Of a stretch of 64,000 bases of DNA, positions 55,157 through 58,684 are shown in pieces. Position numbers and translations under genes: made by a program. Each line of letters begins with the position of its first letter. Positions within the stretch are counted from its first letter, which is position 1. The notes beneath the pieces are model-generated. The model was not told where the DNA came from, made no database searches, and saw only the letters and a list, made by a program, of their open reading frames with translations. The stretch is from Clostridia bacterium. GTDB taxonomy: Bacteria; Bacillota; Clostridia; TANB77; CAG-508. The stretch covers positions 15,228-79,227 of the forward strand of contig JBJFFE010000069.1 of NCBI GenBank assembly GCA_051891435.1, in the 5' to 3' direction.

Positions 55157-56884
55157 TTATTCTACCACTGGTGCAATAAAATTTTCAATAGCATCACGAA
55201 GTTTAGGATGATGTATAACAAAATGAATTGCAGGATGAGTATTTTTTGAAATCATTACCCATTTACCAGAATGAATAGTAATGTTAATATTTCTAAATGT
55301 ATTTATCTTATTCTCTAAAATTTTATAATTATTATGATTACTCATATATTTTTTTGTATCAGTTAAATGTTCTAAATATTCTTCGTAATTATAACAAATG
55401 TCATTAGTATAGAAAGTATCTGAAAGAGAAAGAAAAGGAGGATAATTTTCAAAATCTTCTTTTGATAGTTTTGGTATTTCATCTTCTAAAATATTGTCCT
55501 TTAGAATCTTTTGGATTGTTTGTCTCTGTTTTTTTACAGAATCTATTATTACTTTTGTATTTTCATTATTAACTTTATTGCGTTTTAAAATTTTCAAAAG
55601 TAACTCATCAGAAATTGTATGAATAGGAAGTGAAGATAAAATTCTTCTACGATTTCCTTTAATACTTGCATCAGATGAAATAAAAGCATCAAAATCATTT
55701 CTATTTTCTACTCTATAAATATCCATAAGTGGTTTTGCTTTATTTAATAAACACTCGGCTTTAGTTCTATAATATGCAACATCGGTTTTGTTACTTGTCA
55801 AATGATATTTTCCTTTATTATGATAGCCTTTAATACATTCACCAGTAAGTGCAACAGTACCTGATACATAATTAAAATGACAATAAACAGAGTTTTGAAG
55901 TCCCGTTAAATAGTATGGAGAAACTTGACCTGTCATATAAATTGGAATCCAACTTTCAAGTCCTAACATCATTTCATTAAAAGGTCTATCAAGATTATGA
56001 ATTATATTTAAATGAAGTCCTTTTTTTAATGTCATTGCAATAGCAAACATCCACTTTTTTCCGAAATCTACATCTTCTGCCATATCCTCCATAGGCATAT
56101 CACTACACATAAAAACAGGCTCATTAGATTTTGATAGCACAGTAGCTTTGAAGAAGTCCAATTCTCCTTGTTTCATTTCTCCTATTCCATAATAAGTTTT
56201 TGAACCAGACTTATAAAAAGGAACAAAAGGAACTTTCATTTCATCAAAATGAATTGCTTTAATATATGTATCTAGACTAAAGTTATCTAAATTTTTTAAA
56301 AATGTATCAATTTTATTGTTACTAGGAACTGAATTAGTAGAAAGCCAGTTTGATAATTTGTTAAAATAATTAGATCTATCATCTAAGTCTTTTAAAGAGC
56401 AACCTATAAGAAGTGAAATAGATTTTTTATCATCTTCAGACTTATATTTTGTAACAATAAAATTACATACAGCTTCAATAAAATCTTGAGGTTTTGATGG
56501 ATTTCTGCTTCCCGAACGAATTTTAGAAAGTAGAGAAGCATCATAACCAATAGCTCGAGATAAATCAGCTATATTTATATTTAAGTTCAAAAGAATGTTT
56601 CTAAAATTTCTACTTAATTGTTCATAATCAATAGCAATATCATTTAAAGTGCTAGATAAAGCATTATAAATTTCATTTCGAGTTAGATTTATATTTTTAT
56701 TTTGACTAATATTATACAAACCATCTACTAATTGTTCTAATTGTTTACTTCTTATATTTGGAGTTCTTTCACCATTGCGATAACGACTAATAACAGTAGA
56801 AGACAAACCAGATGCTACAACAAGTTCTTTAGAAGAACATTCCAATTGTTGTATATATTTATTTAATTGTTCACAAAAATTCAT
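55157..56884 (-). CDS. XRE-family transcriptional regulator with two N-terminal HTH domains and a large uncharacterised C-terminal domain (575 aa)
   Basis: The HTH_3-like segments are ..SSKELVVASGLSSTVISRYRNGERTP.. and ..IADLSRAIGYDASLLSKIRSGSRNP... It is divergent from the srtB surface-protein locus. Confidence 0.65.
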   Translation of the reverse strand: MNFCEQLNKYIQQLECSSKELVVASGLSSTVISRYRNGERTPNIRSKQLEQLVDGLYNISQNKNINLTRNEIYNALSSTLNDIAIDYEQLSRNFRNILLNLNINIADLSRAIGYDASLLSKIRSGSRNPSKPQDFIEAVCNFIVTKYKSEDDKKSISLLIGCSLKDLDDRSNYFNKLSNWLSTNSVPSNNKIDTFLKNLDNFSLDTYIKAIHFDEMKVPFVPFYKSGSKTYYGIGEMKQGELDFFKATVLSKSNEPVFMCSDMPMEDMAEDVDFGKKWMFAIAMTLKKGLHLNIIHNLDRPFNEMMLGLESWIPIYMTGQVSPYYLTGLQNSVYCHFNYVSGTVALTGECIKGYHNKGKYHLTSNKTDVAYYRTKAECLLNKAKPLMDIYRVENRNDFDAFISSDASIKGNRRRILSSLPIHTISDELLLKILKRNKVNNENTKVIIDSVKKQRQTIQKILKDNILEDEIPKLSKEDFENYPPFLSLSDTFYTNDICYNYEEYLEHLTDTKKYMSNHNNYKILENKINTFRNINITIHSGKWVMISKNTHPAIHFVIHHPKLRDAIENFIAPVVE

Positions 56885-57039
56885 TAAATACCTCCGAAAT
56901 CAATAATTATTAACTATTATAACATATCATAAAATTAGGAAAAAAACAATTACCAAAGTTTCACGGAAAATTCGGTAAAAAACATAGAATCTAATACATA
57001 ATATGATAAAATATTAATATAAAAAAGGAGGATAAAACA

Positions 57040-57867
57040 ATGAAAAATAGAGGACTTTTATCATTAATCTTAACAATTTGTATGGTGTTGTTACTTACAC
57101 CGACGGTTGCCTATGCTGAAGAGGTAAAAATCAACGACGGCGAACTTATCAATGTCCGCGTCTTAGACAACTCTGTTGACGCTTCCTCGATAAGTGTAGA
57201 TCTCTTCGTGATATTCCGTAACAAAGAGACCGGAGAAGAGCAACCTCTTGAGGGTATCGACACGATTACTCCGGAGAATGTAACCATCGCCACCTTTGAA
57301 ACTATCAAAACGAACGCGATTGAAGATGCAAAAACGAAGCTGAACGAATGGCTTGAAATAATGCGCCAGGCAAATCCTGATGTGCAGTTCACGGTTGTCG
57401 GTGATATGGATGTGAAGGGTAATGATGTAGATTTTGACAACAGGACCTATACCATGAAAAGTGACGGCAATGATGATATAATCATAGGTGACGAAGCTTC
57501 CGGCAGTACAACGAATGGAAGCCAAACCACCTCGCGATATATGGAGGTCAACGGCGATTACGGTAAAAAAGGTAACTATTCCGTCACCATGACAGTTGAG
57601 GTTCAGGCTGTCGGCAAGCACACCTTGACCATTGTCTATAATGATGGTGAGTGCAACACGGAGTTTGAAATCAAGGCGGCAAGCACGACCCAAGGCAACA
57701 AACCGGATGGTACGGTGACGAGCGAGAGCAAACCAACCATAGGCGAAATAACAAACCCGCAAACAGGAGATAATATAATAATGTTTATCATCATATTTGC
57801 ACTAGCCTTGACAGGAATTTTAGCAACATGTATAATAAGCAAGAAGAGAGTTAAAAATAACAAATAA
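57040..57867 (+). CDS. Cell-wall-anchored surface protein with NPQTG sorting signal (sortase B-type substrate); GC-rich foreign composition
   Basis: It has the signal peptide MKNRGLLSLILTICMVLLLTPTVAYA and a C-terminal NPQTG + TM + KKRVKNNK. The gene is about 45-48% GC against about 28% for the genome. Confidence 0.7.
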   Translation: MKNRGLLSLILTICMVLLLTPTVAYAEEVKINDGELINVRVLDNSVDASSISVDLFVIFRNKETGEEQPLEGIDTITPENVTIATFETIKTNAIEDAKTKLNEWLEIMRQANPDVQFTVVGDMDVKGNDVDFDNRTYTMKSDGNDDIIIGDEASGSTTNGSQTTSRYMEVNGDYGKKGNYSVTMTVEVQAVGKHTLTIVYNDGECNTEFEIKAASTTQGNKPDGTVTSESKPTIGEITNPQTGDNIIMFIIIFALALTGILATCIISKKRVKNNK

Positions 57868-57928
57868 TAATGATTAAAAAGGAAACTAGCTAAAAAATGT
57901 TAGTCTTCTTTTAAAAAGGAGAACATAA

Positions 57929-58684
57929 ATGTCTAGAGCTAAGCATTATAATAAGAAAAAAACAAACATTATAAGTATAATTCTATTATTCATTTTCATT
58001 ATACTCTTATTTTATTCTGGCACGAAAATAGTTATATGGTATATGAATAATCAAAATAATAAAAAAATATCAGATGAGATAGCAGAATTTGTTACAGTTG
58101 ATGAAACAAAAGAAGATGATGAGGAAAAATATGTAGTAGATTTTGAGAAATTAAAAGAAAAAAATTCGGATATAGTAGCATGGTTAAAAGTAAATGGAAC
58201 TAATATTGAAACAACAGTTGTAAAGAGCACCAACAATGATTATTATTTAACACATAATTTTAATAAAGAATATAATTCTGCTGGTTGGATATTTGCAGAC
58301 TATAAAAATAAAGTTGATGGAACAGATAAAAATTTAGTTATATATGGACATAATATGAGAGATAATTCAATGTTTGGTAGTCTAAAGTGGGTTATAAATG
58401 AAGATTGGTATAATAATGAAGATAATAAGTATATTACTTTAATAACTGAAAATGAAACACAGGTCTATGAAGTTTTTTCGGTTTATCAAATCGAAAAAGA
58501 AGATTATTATATAACAACAGAATTTGAAAATGACAAAAAATTTGAGCAATTTGTAAACACTATAAAGAAAAGAAGTATAAAGGAATTTGATATAGATGTT
58601 TCAGGAAGTGATAATATTCTAACATTGTCAACATGTGCTAATAACAATAAATACAGAGTTGTTTTACACGCTAAAAAAATATAA
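57929..58684 (+). CDS. srtB: Class B sortase
   Basis: It has an N-terminal TM anchor, the catalytic His region LVIYGHNM, the TLSTC Cys motif and the Arg in RVVLHAKK. Confidence 0.8.
   Translation: MSRAKHYNKKKTNIISIILLFIFIILLFYSGTKIVIWYMNNQNNKKISDEIAEFVTVDETKEDDEEKYVVDFEKLKEKNSDIVAWLKVNGTNIETTVVKSTNNDYYLTHNFNKEYNSAGWIFADYKNKVDGTDKNLVIYGHNMRDNSMFGSLKWVINEDWYNNEDNKYITLITENETQVYEVFSVYQIEKEDYYITTEFENDKKFEQFVNTIKKRSIKEFDIDVSGSDNILTLSTCANNNKYRVVLHAKKI

Follow-up and report, generated by a model that had tools for sequence, protein, structure and literature searches.

A sortase-B display locus with an exchangeable cargo slot and a probable xenolog as its present cargo in a Clostridia bacterium

The sortase-B locus of the window (the whole 64-kb stretch of DNA analysed) is very probably a regulator-controlled display locus with an exchangeable cargo slot, the present cargo being a xenolog. 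Within the surface-protein gene, a segment of 45% GC is fused in frame with the anchor module native to the clade, the junction lying immediately upstream of TNPQTG. This is a cleanly bounded cargo swap, a variation on a known theme and not a new kind of system. The features of the locus are collected in Table 1.

Table 1. Positions and bases of assignment of the features of the locus, numbered as in the window
Feature	Position	Strand	Basis
575-aa putative regulator	55157..56884	-	Pfam HTH_3 and HTH_26, AF2, Foldseek
Divergent control region, native to the AT-rich clade	56885..57039	.	Alignment of 10 intergenic regions
Predicted extended -10 TGTTATAAT, regulator's own promoter	56916..56924	-	Sequence reading; in conserved block TATTATAAYATATCAT
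Putative operator, 29-bp palindrome TTACCAAA-N13-TTCGGTAA	56950..56978	.	Uniqueness, covarying arms
Predicted extended -10 TGATAAAAT, cargo promoter	57004..57012	+	Sequence reading; conserved as TATGATARAAT
Sortase-B substrate gene, apparently chimeric, 275 aa	57040..57867	+	ORF, sequence reading
GC-rich cassette, probably foreign, 704 bp	57046..57749	+	Limits from blastn of L022 against the window; GC, GC3
213-nt (71-codon) in-frame deletion junction	57607..57608	+	Pairwise alignment with L001
Clade-native anchor module: T-NPQTG-DN, TM (57775-57840), KKRVKNNK, stop	57750..57867	+	Nucleotide identity to L022, codon alignment
Candidate srtB promoter, TTGACA-17-TATAAT	57808..57836	+	Perfect sigma-70 consensus within anchor-coding sequence
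srtB, class-B sortase, 251 aa	57929..58684	+	TIGR03064, PDB SrtB matches
p374, 374-aa membrane-anchored protein	58700..59824	+	ORF, locus comparison
p141, small membrane-anchored protein	59842..60267	+	After p374 in several related loci

Conserved scaffold and variable cargo slot

Related AT-rich gut Clostridium genomes have a common scaffold: divergent promoters, with a 29-bp palindrome between them, separate a 575-aa double-HTH regulator from one or two cargos, srtB, p374 and p141, and the cargos end in NP(K/Q)TG-DN, a TM segment and a basic tail. A synteny comparison over about 100 related loci showed that this scaffold is kept while the cargo varies: in relatives with regulators 50-91% identical to that of the window, regulator, operator, srtB and p374 all stay in place and the slot is filled by AT-rich NPKTG cargos. 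The slot holds two cargos of about 465 and 477 aa in L010-12 and L016-18, two of 611 and 503 aa in L013-15, two of 516 and 199 aa in L019, one of 600 aa in L021, a 477-aa Flg_new_2 cargo in L022-24, and p374 only in L020. More than 45 related AT-rich loci lack the GC-rich gene and have other cargos in its place. One composition in all relatives, which the earlier note had associated with an ancient acquisition, is not what these loci show. Its proposal of a cargo replacement at a conserved, native sortase locus is directly supported by these slots filled by native cargos and by L022, which differs from the window in the cassette alone.

The gene itself encodes the signal peptide and the NPQTG-TM-KKRVKNNK end that had been described. 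The signal peptide reads MKNRGLLSLILTICMVLLLTPTVAYA|EE, and in the sorting signal NPQTG occupies residues 239-243 (nt 57754-57768), followed by 22 hydrophobic residues and KKRVKNNK. A GC content of 45-48% had also been given, which holds for the cassette core (GC 0.452, GC3 0.51, with 60-nt blocks up to 0.52 GC) and not for the whole ORF (GC 0.426, GC3 0.475). The 50 other ORFs of the window have a mean GC3 of 0.14 +/- 0.037 (maximum 0.336), which places the surface gene 9 SD above them (z = 9), and nine of the ten highest-GC 828-nt windows in the 64 kb overlap it. Codon usage is inverted relative to this background (ACC+ACG 0.79 vs 0.07; GTC 0.33 vs 0.02; GGC 0.39 vs 0.06; ATC 0.44 vs 0.03), bearing out the compositional contrast on which the note was built. 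Among related AT-rich loci, 26 native NPKTG cargos from 40 loci have a GC3 of 0.07-0.16, and none of the 146 ORFs in the operons of these 40 loci exceeds 0.32.

The GC-rich cassette, its junctions and its source

A blastn comparison with L022 delimits the cassette: homology to the window extends over 56245-57045 (93.6%) and 57750-58684 (90.5%) with none between, so that common flanks of 90-94% nucleotide identity enclose the cassette in the window and a 1310-bp AT-rich cargo in L022. The more distant arrangement of L010 shares the stretches 55157-56957 and 58007-60293. The cassette encodes, besides the signal peptide (to 57117), a conserved N-domain (residues ~37-190), a remnant of an X2 domain and a linker. 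Structure prediction gave a confident model of the N-domain (pLDDT ~90) but no recognisable fold, and a structure search retrieved no match among solved or viral predicted structures; the label "adhesin" is better regarded as unproven.

At its 5' end the cassette is homologous to donor genes from the ATG on, and the AT-rich signal-peptide codons are part of the import rather than a native remnant, because they are equally AT-rich in the donor genes. At the other end, the foreign part stops within the ORF, right before TNPQTG, leaving a native anchor. The anchor module has a GC3 of 0.26 and 90.5% nucleotide identity to L022, where it closes the native 477-aa cargo, a likeness that covers 118 nt. 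The same anchor closes the unrelated native cargos P0059, P0068, P0070, P0074-79 and P0081; its sequence, TNPQTGDNIIMFIIIFALALTGILATCIISKKRVKNNK, recurs on native cargos with unrelated N-termini, and in codon alignment it resembles the native NPKTGDN[IV]I.Y.VLF anchors, unlike the SPQTGDNSNMLLWVALLFVSG of the donors. Alignment with L001 shows that the in-frame deletion, flanked by direct repeats CTGTCGGC(G/A)AG, took most of the X2 domain out of the window copy; CBM_X2 gives no Pfam match in the window protein vs 5.8e-10 in L001, and L007 has the full-length gene with X2 kept.

Since the window comes from a metagenome-assembled genome and each junction coincides with a short conserved sequence (ATGAAA at one, the PQTGDN codons at the other), one could suspect an assembly or binning chimera, in which a motif common to both organisms had led GC-richer reads to be built into an AT-rich contig. 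We consider this highly implausible: the same gene with the same junctions recurs in the window, L007, L001 and L002, four assemblies made independently from separate samples in separate studies, the N-domain is combined with an AT-type anchor on many short contigs (P0002-P0006, P0039, P0045-P0053), and the ORF is intact and in frame through both junctions.

The cassette belongs to a surface-protein family composed of a novel N-domain, an X2 domain and an SPQTG anchor. Donor-type hosts are Clostridia of 40-46% GC, including Ruminococcus sp., Ruminococcaceae UMGS976 and Ca. Fimenecus among others, and where the host has 45% GC the gene does not stand out in composition from its surroundings (0.459 vs 0.458). 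Nucleotide identity of the cassette is 86% to L003, 76% to L006 and up to 87% within the family. Between the window and a 45% GC host the N-domain has a dS of 0.22, and across orders its dS lies at 0.11-0.24, whereas the neighbouring regulators have reached saturation at synonymous sites (dN 0.45 between the window and L003), which supports a transfer that is recent relative to host divergence.

That the surface gene keeps a GC content of 42-47% in every host examined would also be expected of an old resident held GC-rich by selection, for instance on mRNA structure or translation kinetics, and never horizontally transferred. Such an origin is hardly credible given a synonymous divergence of just 0.11-0.45 between hosts of different orders whose neighbouring regulators are saturated, the related AT-rich loci that have other cargos in the slot, and a search of the surface-gene region that yielded no Rfam family and no significant structure signal.

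The gene is not strain-specific: a conspecific MAG and a related lineage have it too, with turnover of alleles. Between the window and its conspecific L007, 56234-57033 and 57621-60220 are ~100% identical, and 57034-57607 only 85-91%. In the N-domain tree, a plain NJ on identities without support values that includes some fragment sequences, AT-anchored alleles are polyphyletic among the GC-anchored ones. N-domain alleles thus appear to move repeatedly between AT-rich and GC-richer hosts, and also from strain to strain within a species; a single import and later recombination with further alleles could account for the two carrier lineages, window/L007 and L001/L002.

The junction and the anchor are the same in all AT-anchored copies, and the high dN/dS of the N-domain (0.4-0.85) indicates a fast-evolving domain, both of which would fit a single old import into the AT-rich clade, with alleles diverging in place and patchy identity produced by fast surface-protein evolution. 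We regard this as unlikely, though less so than the other alternatives considered here. The GC3 of the cassette in AT-rich hosts (0.47-0.53) equals that of the donor copies (0.41-0.52) with no sign of amelioration; P0002, which has an AT anchor, is 89.7% identical to the GC-anchored P0022 but at most 85.3% to AT-anchored alleles; and with identical flanks the window and L007 differ in the N-domain by a dS of 0.24, as much as from hosts of another order.

In the exchange that we favour, the exported part came from distantly related, GC-richer gut bacteria and was placed between the host promoter and the host anchor. The left arm (regulator and control region) and the right arm (anchor and srtB) would then supply the homology by which cassettes are exchanged within the clade. 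The window allele later lost 71 codons of its X2 stalk through deletion between the short direct repeats. Counting against this explanation, no mobility gene, repeat or att-like site lies beside the cassette within the window; a carrier search found no phage or plasmid bearing it.

Regulator, control region and downstream genes

The regulator had been described as divergent, native and double-HTH, and the last two of these attributes are upheld by an HTH_3 match (29.6 bits, cut-off 23; residues 95-130), a second copy of the motif at residues 24-42, two helical bundles (3-62 and 87-146) in the AF2 model (pLDDT 89), and a host-like GC3 of 0.122. The XRE-type HTHs (~1-62, 87-146) are followed by a helical linker and by PLD-like alpha/beta domains (~229-575). 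The C-terminal region had been called unknown: it has indeed no Pfam hit, but its predicted structure appears to be a PLD-like fold resembling TrmB, with Foldseek matches to PPK1, TrmBL2 (4.5e-5), NucT, Nuc and TrmB (sugar-binding domain 2f5t, 4.4e-3). This TrmB-like character makes it plausible that the regulator senses a signal through its C-terminal domain, as had been suggested. The HKD motif is degenerate yet present (H559-P-K561...D564), so the PLD-like domains may catalyse a reaction rather than sense a ligand.

The family is large, with at least 8000 close matches and 2271 clusters at 50% identity, nearly all of ~575 aa. A DNA-targeting PLD-type nuclease, or a mobile-element or defence protein residing beside variable surface genes in islands, is a quite unlikely identity for this protein, although the nucleases Nuc and NucT are the nearest matches to its fold (TMt 0.61-0.68), the residual HxK...D motif would suit an enzyme, and at some loci an integrase (L010, L011) or a Wadjet defence system (L019) lies nearby. 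The function of cargo transcription factor is favoured by 39 of 40 AT-rich regulator-homolog loci, where the divergent operon encodes an NPxTG cargo, p374 or both, by the palindrome with covarying arms between the divergent promoters, and by the use of the same fold as effector domain in TrmB and TrmBL2; moreover, the first PLD-like repeat lacks the Lys (IHNLDR), and PADLOC returned no family match save a weak HTH hit.

The control region is kept whatever the cargo, its homology reaching 57042 with L013 and 57045 with L022. The palindrome occurs once in the 64 kb, where none is expected, and in the alignment of 10 intergenic regions its arms covary across loci (TCGCCAAA/TTTGGCGA, TTGCCAAA/TTTGGCAA, TTTCCGA/TCGGAAA). 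A dyad of 29-30 bp was found in 23 of 64 regulator-proximal intergenic regions, the strict palindrome being limited to these 23 loci, vs 0.5% of shuffles, and an organism with 58% GC has the palindrome too, beside a regulator of 40% identity. A regulator dimer would bind here, its four HTHs accommodating outer and inner half-sites, and would govern its own promoter and that of the cargo, which has a poor -35, in response to a small ligand in the PLD-like domains, by analogy with TrmB and sugars.

The identity of the adjoining sortase as a native SrtB with TLSTC and RVVLHAKK motifs was corroborated by profile search (TIGR03064, 206 bits; cut-off 153.75) and by a GC3 of 0.163. Its best solved relatives are all SrtB, from B. 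anthracis (1rz2), then C. perfringens, L. monocytogenes, S. aureus and C. difficile; it has an N-terminal TM, with the His in YGHNM, the Cys in TLSTC and the Arg in YRVVLH. The surface protein would be exported by Sec; SrtB would cut NPQTG between T and G and attach the product to peptidoglycan, so that the N-domain is exposed on a shortened stalk. The srtB gene probably has a promoter of its own within the anchor-coding sequence, the sole 12/12 sigma-70 match in 5.7 kb, 93 nt upstream of srtB and kept in L001, L007 and L022, and the sortase would thus be made whatever the cargo.

In the 40 JGI loci, srtB adjoins the regulator in only three, which indicates that the regulator family is tied more to p374 and the cargos than to the sortase. 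With a place in the divergent operon of 31 of the 40 AT-rich loci, p374 accompanies the regulator family in AT-rich relatives more constantly than any other gene, and it also adjoins a donor-type surface gene in L008. It has 2131 homologs, none of them named, and no match in Pfam, NCBIfam or the PDB.

Comparison with known systems

A close likeness is to the SrtB-IsdC loci of Bacillus anthracis and Staphylococcus aureus (isd), where a class-B sortase adjoins a dedicated substrate with the motif NPKTG or NPQTN, and the window SrtB is most similar to that of B. anthracis (1rz2, 1.4e-39). The isd genes are regulated by Fur. Unlike these, the window locus has no NEAT or haem-uptake domain and no isd genes, it has a divergent double-HTH PLD-like protein as putative regulator, and its cargo slot varies among relatives and holds a probably foreign gene in the window. 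NP(K/Q)TG-D is found in every cargo at these loci; the B. anthracis enzyme recognises NPKTG and requires Asp at P2' (PMC11987632).

Clostridioides difficile SrtB is likewise a clostridial class-B sortase (4ux7 and 5gyj match the window SrtB at ~1e-29), and its (S/P)PxTG substrates recall the donor-side family copies, which end in SPQTG, SPKTG or TPQTG. The C. difficile substrates are dispersed in the genome, some under c-di-GMP riboswitches, whereas the window substrate adjoins its sortase and a protein regulator; an Rfam search detected no riboswitch at the window locus.

For the X2-like stalk (CBM_X2, PF03442), the family profile matches residues 971-1072 of the "IgA protease" PDB 9qa6_A (3.3e-27), and an SPXTG motif also terminates the IgA protease of Thomasclavelia ramosa (PMC12402451). 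A native cargo of L010 shares the X2, linker and anchor module with the surface-protein family (hhalign, 3e-24). The window protein differs from X2-stalk proteins in its N-domain head (~37-190), which is unrelated to any solved or viral predicted structure, and in the missing 71 X2 codons, which leave it with no CBM_X2 score.

The regulator resembles the archaeal, sugar-responsive TrmB and TrmBL2 in the predicted order of a DNA-binding N-terminus and a PLD-like effector domain. It departs from them in having two XRE-type HTHs instead of a winged helix and what appear to be two tandem PLD-like repeats, and in being a bacterial protein of ~575 aa with no similarity at the sequence level (no Pfam match).

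Exchange of surface-gene cassettes between conserved flanks is familiar from S-layer cassette switching in C. difficile and from the mosaic emm/pspC genes of streptococci, where, as here, fast-evolving exposed domains lie between conserved 5' and 3' sequences and alleles are replaced between strains. The window differs from these systems in a pool that spans hosts ~18 GC points apart, from different Clostridia families or orders, and in a 3' junction that lies at the sorting motif, so that the passenger appears to be foreign and the anchor native.

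Composition and boundaries of the surface-protein gene

The surface-protein gene beside srtB is chimeric: a xenologous cassette that supplies only the passenger is set in a native frame of promoter and operator, anchor and sortase, with ongoing allele exchange and a secondary deletion in the stalk. The three ORFs of an earlier note on this sequence (regulator, surface protein and sortase) were recovered at the same positions (see the table of features). The surface protein, of 275 aa, has a signal peptide ending …TPTVAYA↓EE (cleavage-type AYA↓EE), NPQTG at residues 239-243, a 22-residue hydrophobic stretch and the tail KKRVKNNK; signal peptide, pentapeptide motif, hydrophobic segment and positively charged tail are those of a sortase substrate, and the AF2 model places helices at residues 4-17 and 244-273.

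Features of the window discussed in the text
Feature	Position	Strand	Remarks
332-aa ORF	37270-38268	+	no Pfam match
Small secreted protein	40755-41096	+	113 aa
tRNA gene	51113-51184	+	just upstream of dnaE
dnaE	51323-54833		overlapping ORFs 51323-52909 and 52845-54833
Regulator gene	55157-56884	-	575 aa, divergent
Palindrome	56950-56978		TTACCAAA-N13-TTCGGTAA, between the divergent genes
Predicted extended -10 elements		both	either side of the palindrome; TGTTATAAT for the regulator, TGATAAAAT for the cargo
Surface-protein gene	57040-57867		chimeric
Cassette (core)	57046-57749		foreign, GC-rich
Antisense ORF	57163-57762		199 aa
Deletion point	57607/57608		213 nt (71 codons)
Sigma-70 promoter consensus	57808-57836	+	TTGACA-17-TATAAT
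Hairpin	~57893-57920		weak, AT-rich, then TCTTTT; cargo stop codon to srtB
srtB	57929-58684	+	
p374	58700-59824	+	
p141	59842-60267	+	

The composition of the gene looked foreign when compared with the 50 other ORFs of the window, which have a GC3 of 0.14 +/- 0.037 (maximum 0.336): GC3 is 0.475 for the whole ORF (z ~9) and 0.51 for the core, and 9 of the 10 highest-GC 828-nt windows in the 64 kb overlap it. Codon choice is inverted: ACC+ACG account for 0.79 of Thr codons (background 0.07), and GTC stands at 0.33 (background 0.02). The GC content of 45-48% previously put forward applies to the core (0.452) but not to the ORF as a whole (0.426), while the neighbours are host-like as described (regulator GC3 0.122). 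The antisense ORF was dismissed as a by-product of GC-rich sequence within an AT-rich genome.

The locus type was defined by comparison with loci whose regulators are 69-91% identical to that of the window. Divergent to the regulator, L010-12 and L016-18 carry a 465-aa cargo, a 477-aa cargo, srtB, p374 and p141; L013-15 carry cargos of 611 and 503 aa; L019 has a 516-aa protein, a 199-aa cargo and srtB; L020 has p374 only; L021 has a 600-aa cargo; and L022-24 have a 477-aa Flg_new_2 cargo and srtB. The cargos of these relatives are all AT-rich (GC3 0.07-0.20), and their C-termini consist of NPKTG-DN or NPQTG-DN followed by a TM segment and a basic tail. Scanning JGI metagenomes added 80 regulator loci, 40 of them AT-rich with usable upstream sequence; in 39 of these 40 the divergent operon holds an NPxTG cargo and/or a p374 homolog. 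Their 26 cargos have a GC3 of 0.07-0.16, and none of the 146 ORFs of those operons exceeds 0.32. Given such uniformly low values among relatives, the cargo of the window departs not only from the other genes of the window but also from what is usual at this type of locus. The earlier note had suggested a synteny comparison, asking whether a gene of the same composition occurs in all relatives; related loci carry AT-rich cargos instead, and its main interpretation, cargo replacement at a conserved sortase locus, is borne out by the more than 45 related loci that hold other, native cargos and by the breakpoints relative to L022.

Those breakpoints lie between two homologous arms, 56245-57045 (93.6%) and 57750-58684 (90.5%), which enclose 704 bp of GC-rich sequence in the window versus 1310 bp of AT-rich cargo in L022; homology with L010 covers 55157-56957 and 58007-60293. 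The left junction is the start codon: upstream of it the window aligns with the control region of its clade, and from the RBS and ATG on, its nucleotide sequence aligns with genes of the donors, the 40-46% GC Clostridia that carry the cassette family. The AT-rich first 20 codons could be read as a native remnant, but this was rejected because donor genes are homologous from the RBS and ATG and have signal-peptide codons of comparable AT-richness. The right junction falls immediately ahead of TNPQTG, and the next 118 nt have a GC3 of 0.26. The anchor that they encode recurs on native cargos with unrelated N-termini (P0059, P0068, P0070, P0074-79 and P0081), and resembles native NPKTGDN[IV]I.Y.VLF anchors, not donor anchors. 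Native cargo 1 of L010 and the imported family have the X2, linker and anchor module in common (hhalign 3e-24), whereas the head domain is not shared, so that the replacement amounts to a head swap within a common architecture. A chimera arising in assembly was rejected, since four independent assemblies have these same junctions.

The cassette family, its hosts and the exchange of alleles

The surface protein is 100% identical to P0001, a hypothetical protein from a “Clostridia bacterium” MAG. Its homologs (n = 84; mostly 315-345 aa long and containing CBM_X2) were found in gut assemblies from pig, human and chicken and in MAGs named Ruminococcus sp., Ca. Fimenecus sp. and Agathobacter sp.; the GTDB representative genomes gave only 3 loci, so most of the evidence derives from metagenome contigs. 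The gene has a GC content of 0.459 in 45% GC contigs, against 0.458 for its surroundings, and of 0.465 in a 40% GC Ruminococcus. Donor-side copies end in SPQTG, TPQTG, SPKTG or NPNTG, followed by DNSNMLLWVALLFVSG…. The X2 domain of the family matches residues 971-1072 of PDB 9qa6_A (“IgA protease”; 3.3e-27). The N-domain, the conserved head at residues ~37-190, is modelled by AF2 as a beta-sheet packed against a long helix (pLDDT ~90), and a structure search of PDB and BFVD gave no significant match for it.

On the donor side the surface gene is accompanied by a membrane GerE-type regulator that is 87-88% identical across three differently named taxa; in L006, L008 and L009 (MAGs of Ruminococcus sp., Ruminococcaceae UMGS976 and Ca. 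Fimenecus sp.) this GerE/LuxR-type protein of ~465 aa is encoded upstream of, and divergent to, the surface gene. With such identity across named genera, it seems that another regulator-cargo pairing, unrelated to the first, is also moving from genus to genus. In L003-5, from a 45% GC host, the surface gene stands beside TnpV and phage-like genes together with a 578-aa homolog of the window regulator. The regulator-surface pair there (L003 7106-13023, L004 1161-7078) adjoins TnpV, a holin, a CHAP endolysin and a 4274-aa polyvalent (SNF2/MuF/ART) protein, a neighbourhood that looks like the edge of an integrated mobile element; on another contig of the same host the pair adjoins smpB and RNase R. 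Such neighbours were seen only in L003-5, and the cassette of the window carries no mobile-element signature: no integrase, transposase or terminal repeats bounding it were found between 54.8 and 60.4 kb. Searches for phage or plasmid carriage of the surface gene gave no relatives in IMG/VR and no blastn match in PLSDB.

For the N-domain, synonymous divergence (dS) of the window from L003, of the 45% GC host, is 0.22, and that of L001 or L007 from Ruminococcaceae UMGS976 is 0.11-0.13; the range to hosts whose regulators are saturated is 0.11-0.24. The regulators that adjoin the surface gene in the window and L003 share only 49% identity, and their dS is saturated. Low dS to such hosts, the outlying GC3 and the presence of other cargos at the same site together mark the cassette as a xenolog, and it shows no amelioration (GC3 0.47-0.53 in AT-rich hosts, 0.41-0.52 in donors).

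Alleles are also exchanged within the species. L007, a GTDB representative MAG (“uncultured Clostridium sp.”), and the window are collinear between 49284, upstream of dnaE, and 60400 at 94-99.96% nucleotide identity and therefore belong to the same species. The two are ~100% identical at 56234-57033 and 57621-60220, whereas 57034-57607 is only 85-91% identical (dS 0.24) and is a replaced patch. In an identity tree, alleles with the anchor of the AT-rich clade are interleaved with those bearing donor anchors; the AT-anchored allele nearest to P0002 is 85.3% identical to it, whereas a GC-anchored allele reaches 89.7%. The dN/dS of the N-domain, 0.4-0.85 compared with 0.19-0.31 for the regulator, suits an exposed, fast-changing domain.

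The window allele also lacks a segment present in L001 and L007; the deletion point is flanked by direct repeats CTGTCGGC(G/A)AG, and most of X2 is removed. A Pfam search of the window protein accordingly gives no hit, including to CBM_X2 (PF03442), owing to this deletion, while full-length alleles do score (L001, 39.6 bits against a cut-off of 28.9, plus most of the 84 homologs). The window copy is thus a truncated derivative of the CBM_X2 family, and AF2 models its X2 remnant as disordered. P0002 has the same deletion with a different N-domain.

The four-gene module, too, is mosaic and mobile within the clade. L001 and L002 share 55157-59826 with the window at 94% nucleotide identity, and their flanks are unrelated. 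Between the window and L001, 58682-59681 in p374 (L001 7867-8991) is 100% identical over 1 kb, the srtB 3' end only 78% and the regulator ~95%; the p374 stretch is a recent recombination patch inside the module. Between L010 and the window, p374 is 98% and srtB 64% identical. Related loci neighbour an integrase (L010, L011) or a Wadjet system (L019).

The sortase, its probable promoter and the divergent regulator

The sortase had been called class B, and this stands: the protein scores 206.1 bits with TIGR03064 (curated equivalog cut-off 153.75; Pfam Sortase 2.3e-15), and SrtB or SrtB-family enzymes make up all 15 of its best relatives in the PDB, that of B. anthracis being the closest solved. 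The translation shows an N-terminal TM segment IISIILLFIFIILLFYSGTKIVIW as membrane anchor and the catalytic triad, with His in VIYGHNM, Cys in TLSTC and Arg in KYRVVLH; the TLSTC and RVVLHAKK motifs cited earlier are present. B. anthracis SrtB recognizes NPKTG and requires a P2' Asp (PMC11987632). Cargos of this locus type all carry NP(K/Q)TG-D, and since the enzyme adjoins them in many loci it is predicted to cleave an NPxTG/N-type signal and to transfer its substrate to peptidoglycan.

A perfect sigma-70 consensus lies in the anchor codons, 93 nt before srtB, and is kept in L001, L007 and L022; the right-hand arm therefore probably carries the sortase promoter. A hairpin is found after the cargo stop codon, ahead of srtB. 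In C. difficile some substrates of SrtB are under riboswitch control; an Rfam search of the 64 kb for a riboswitch at the locus matched only a single tRNA gene.

The most constant partner of the regulator, in 31 of 40 loci, is p374, which also adjoins a donor-type surface gene in L008; a search for a recognizable domain in p374 found none. Its conserved C-terminus weakly resembles a 148-aa protein of L025 (hhalign E 0.004, probability 8.5%). In L025, from a 58% GC organism, that protein and a 36-aa zinc-ribbon peptide are encoded divergent to the regulator (4242-5000), and the intergenic region holds a near-perfect 23-bp palindrome, CAAATTTGTCAATGACAAATTTG.

The regulator matches HTH_3 (PF01381) at residues 95-130 (29.6 bits, cut-off 23), and the N-terminal HTH copy is detected by profile in the L003 homolog (residues 6-55). 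The AF2 model (pLDDT 89) has two XRE-type helical bundles at 3-62 and 87-146, with a motif S-x-[IL]-S-[RK]-[YI]-R-[NS]-G-x-R-x-P repeated at 24-42 and 112-129, and alpha/beta domains at 229-575. Foldseek matched the bundles to C.BclI, DdrO and Stl, and the C-terminal domains to the PLD-like fold (PPK1 3e-5, TrmBL2 4.5e-5, NucT 5e-4, Nuc 1byr TMt 0.68, TrmB sugar-binding domain 4e-3). The likeness to TrmB is one of fold in the C-terminal part only; there is no Pfam TrmB match and the N-terminus is of XRE type, so that the protein is not a member of that family but may work alike. The HKD motifs are degenerate, the first repeat reading IH296NLDR (no Lys) and the second H559-P-K561-L-R-D564 with altered spacing; H296 is nearly invariant in the family, and H559 and K561 are below 90% conservation. 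The family is very large, with at least 8000 close hits and, at E <= 1e-3, 2271 clusters (50% identity), nearly all of ~575 aa. A PADLOC search with the three proteins gave insignificant matches.

The palindrome occurs once in the window, with 0 expected, and its arms covary in other loci. A generic inverted-repeat finder gave mostly chance AT palindromes on the AT-rich intergenic regions; a scan anchored on CC...GG and controlled with shuffles, used in its place, recovered a 29-30-bp version in 23 of 64 regulator-proximal intergenic regions, compared with 0.5% of shuffles. The 58% GC organism, with a 40%-identical regulator, has an extended palindrome CAAATTTGTCA-A-TGACAAATTTG. The dyad centre would lie ~55 nt from each predicted start site. 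We infer that a dimeric, ligand-responsive regulator may control its own gene and the cargo operon, and that, by analogy with TrmB, the PLD-like part could be what senses the ligand. Sensing through the C-terminal domain had been proposed before; structure prediction supplies the PLD/TrmB-like fold, while the sensing itself is argued by analogy.

In the pig-gut contigs L022 (5101-5802), L023 and L024 an in-frame internal deletion leaves a regulator of 233 aa, in which two HTH domains and the linker are fused to the last ~22 residues (HFVIHHPKLRDAIENF...); this is a natural sensor-less variant beside a native cargo and srtB.

Wider reading and other features of the window

Pairing of SrtB with its substrates and mosaicism of surface-protein genes are already known; less expected are that orders share one pool of alleles, that the junction falls at the sorting motif, and that a large regulator family combines a PLD/TrmB-like half with a conserved palindromic site. 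The locus is a natural case, resolved to the base pair, in which Gram-positive gut commensals fit foreign passenger domains onto a fixed apparatus of regulator, promoter, anchor and sortase, with passengers circulating among Clostridia ~18 points of GC apart. It offers testable parts: SrtB with NP(K/Q)TG-D substrates, a candidate 29-bp operator, and a regulator family of >2000 clusters (50% identity) with its PLD/TrmB-like half. The surface N-domain and p374 are two protein families that deserve structural and binding studies, and a native promoter-plus-anchor frame tolerant of foreign passengers is a ready-made surface-display design for anaerobic commensals. More speculatively, and we consider this rather unlikely as a whole, the locus might represent a widespread, undescribed “plug-in” surface-display system of gut Clostridia, in which regulators of a new, ligand-sensing family (two XRE HTH domains and tandem PLD-like domains, with a 29-bp four-part palindromic operator) govern an operon that has the membrane protein p374 as its constant member and a cargo slot fed by a cross-order gene pool, the sorting signal and anchor, bearing the sortase promoter, serve as a universal 3' docking site, and the N-domain is a new host- or phage-interacting module under diversifying selection.

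Elsewhere in the window, dnaE, which lies downstream of the only Rfam match, is split by a frameshift near 52846-52852, where there is one extra base in the conserved ...QASTHA/AGVVI... motif (catgcaTgccggagtt) and the match to the Pfam DNA_pol3_alpha model breaks at position 215/216. L007, an independent MAG of the same species, aligns gaplessly at this site with the same frame problem, so that the frameshift is either real (a pseudogene, split gene or recoding) or a systematic error that both assemblies share. The 332-aa ORF is a second compositional outlier (GC 0.364, GC3 0.336 against 0.14) and could be another foreign gene. Some 16 kb from the sortase, the small secreted protein ends in ...APTTTPYTGIED, a hydrophobic segment and KKIRDYKE, a C-terminus that resembles a sorting signal with an atypical motif.
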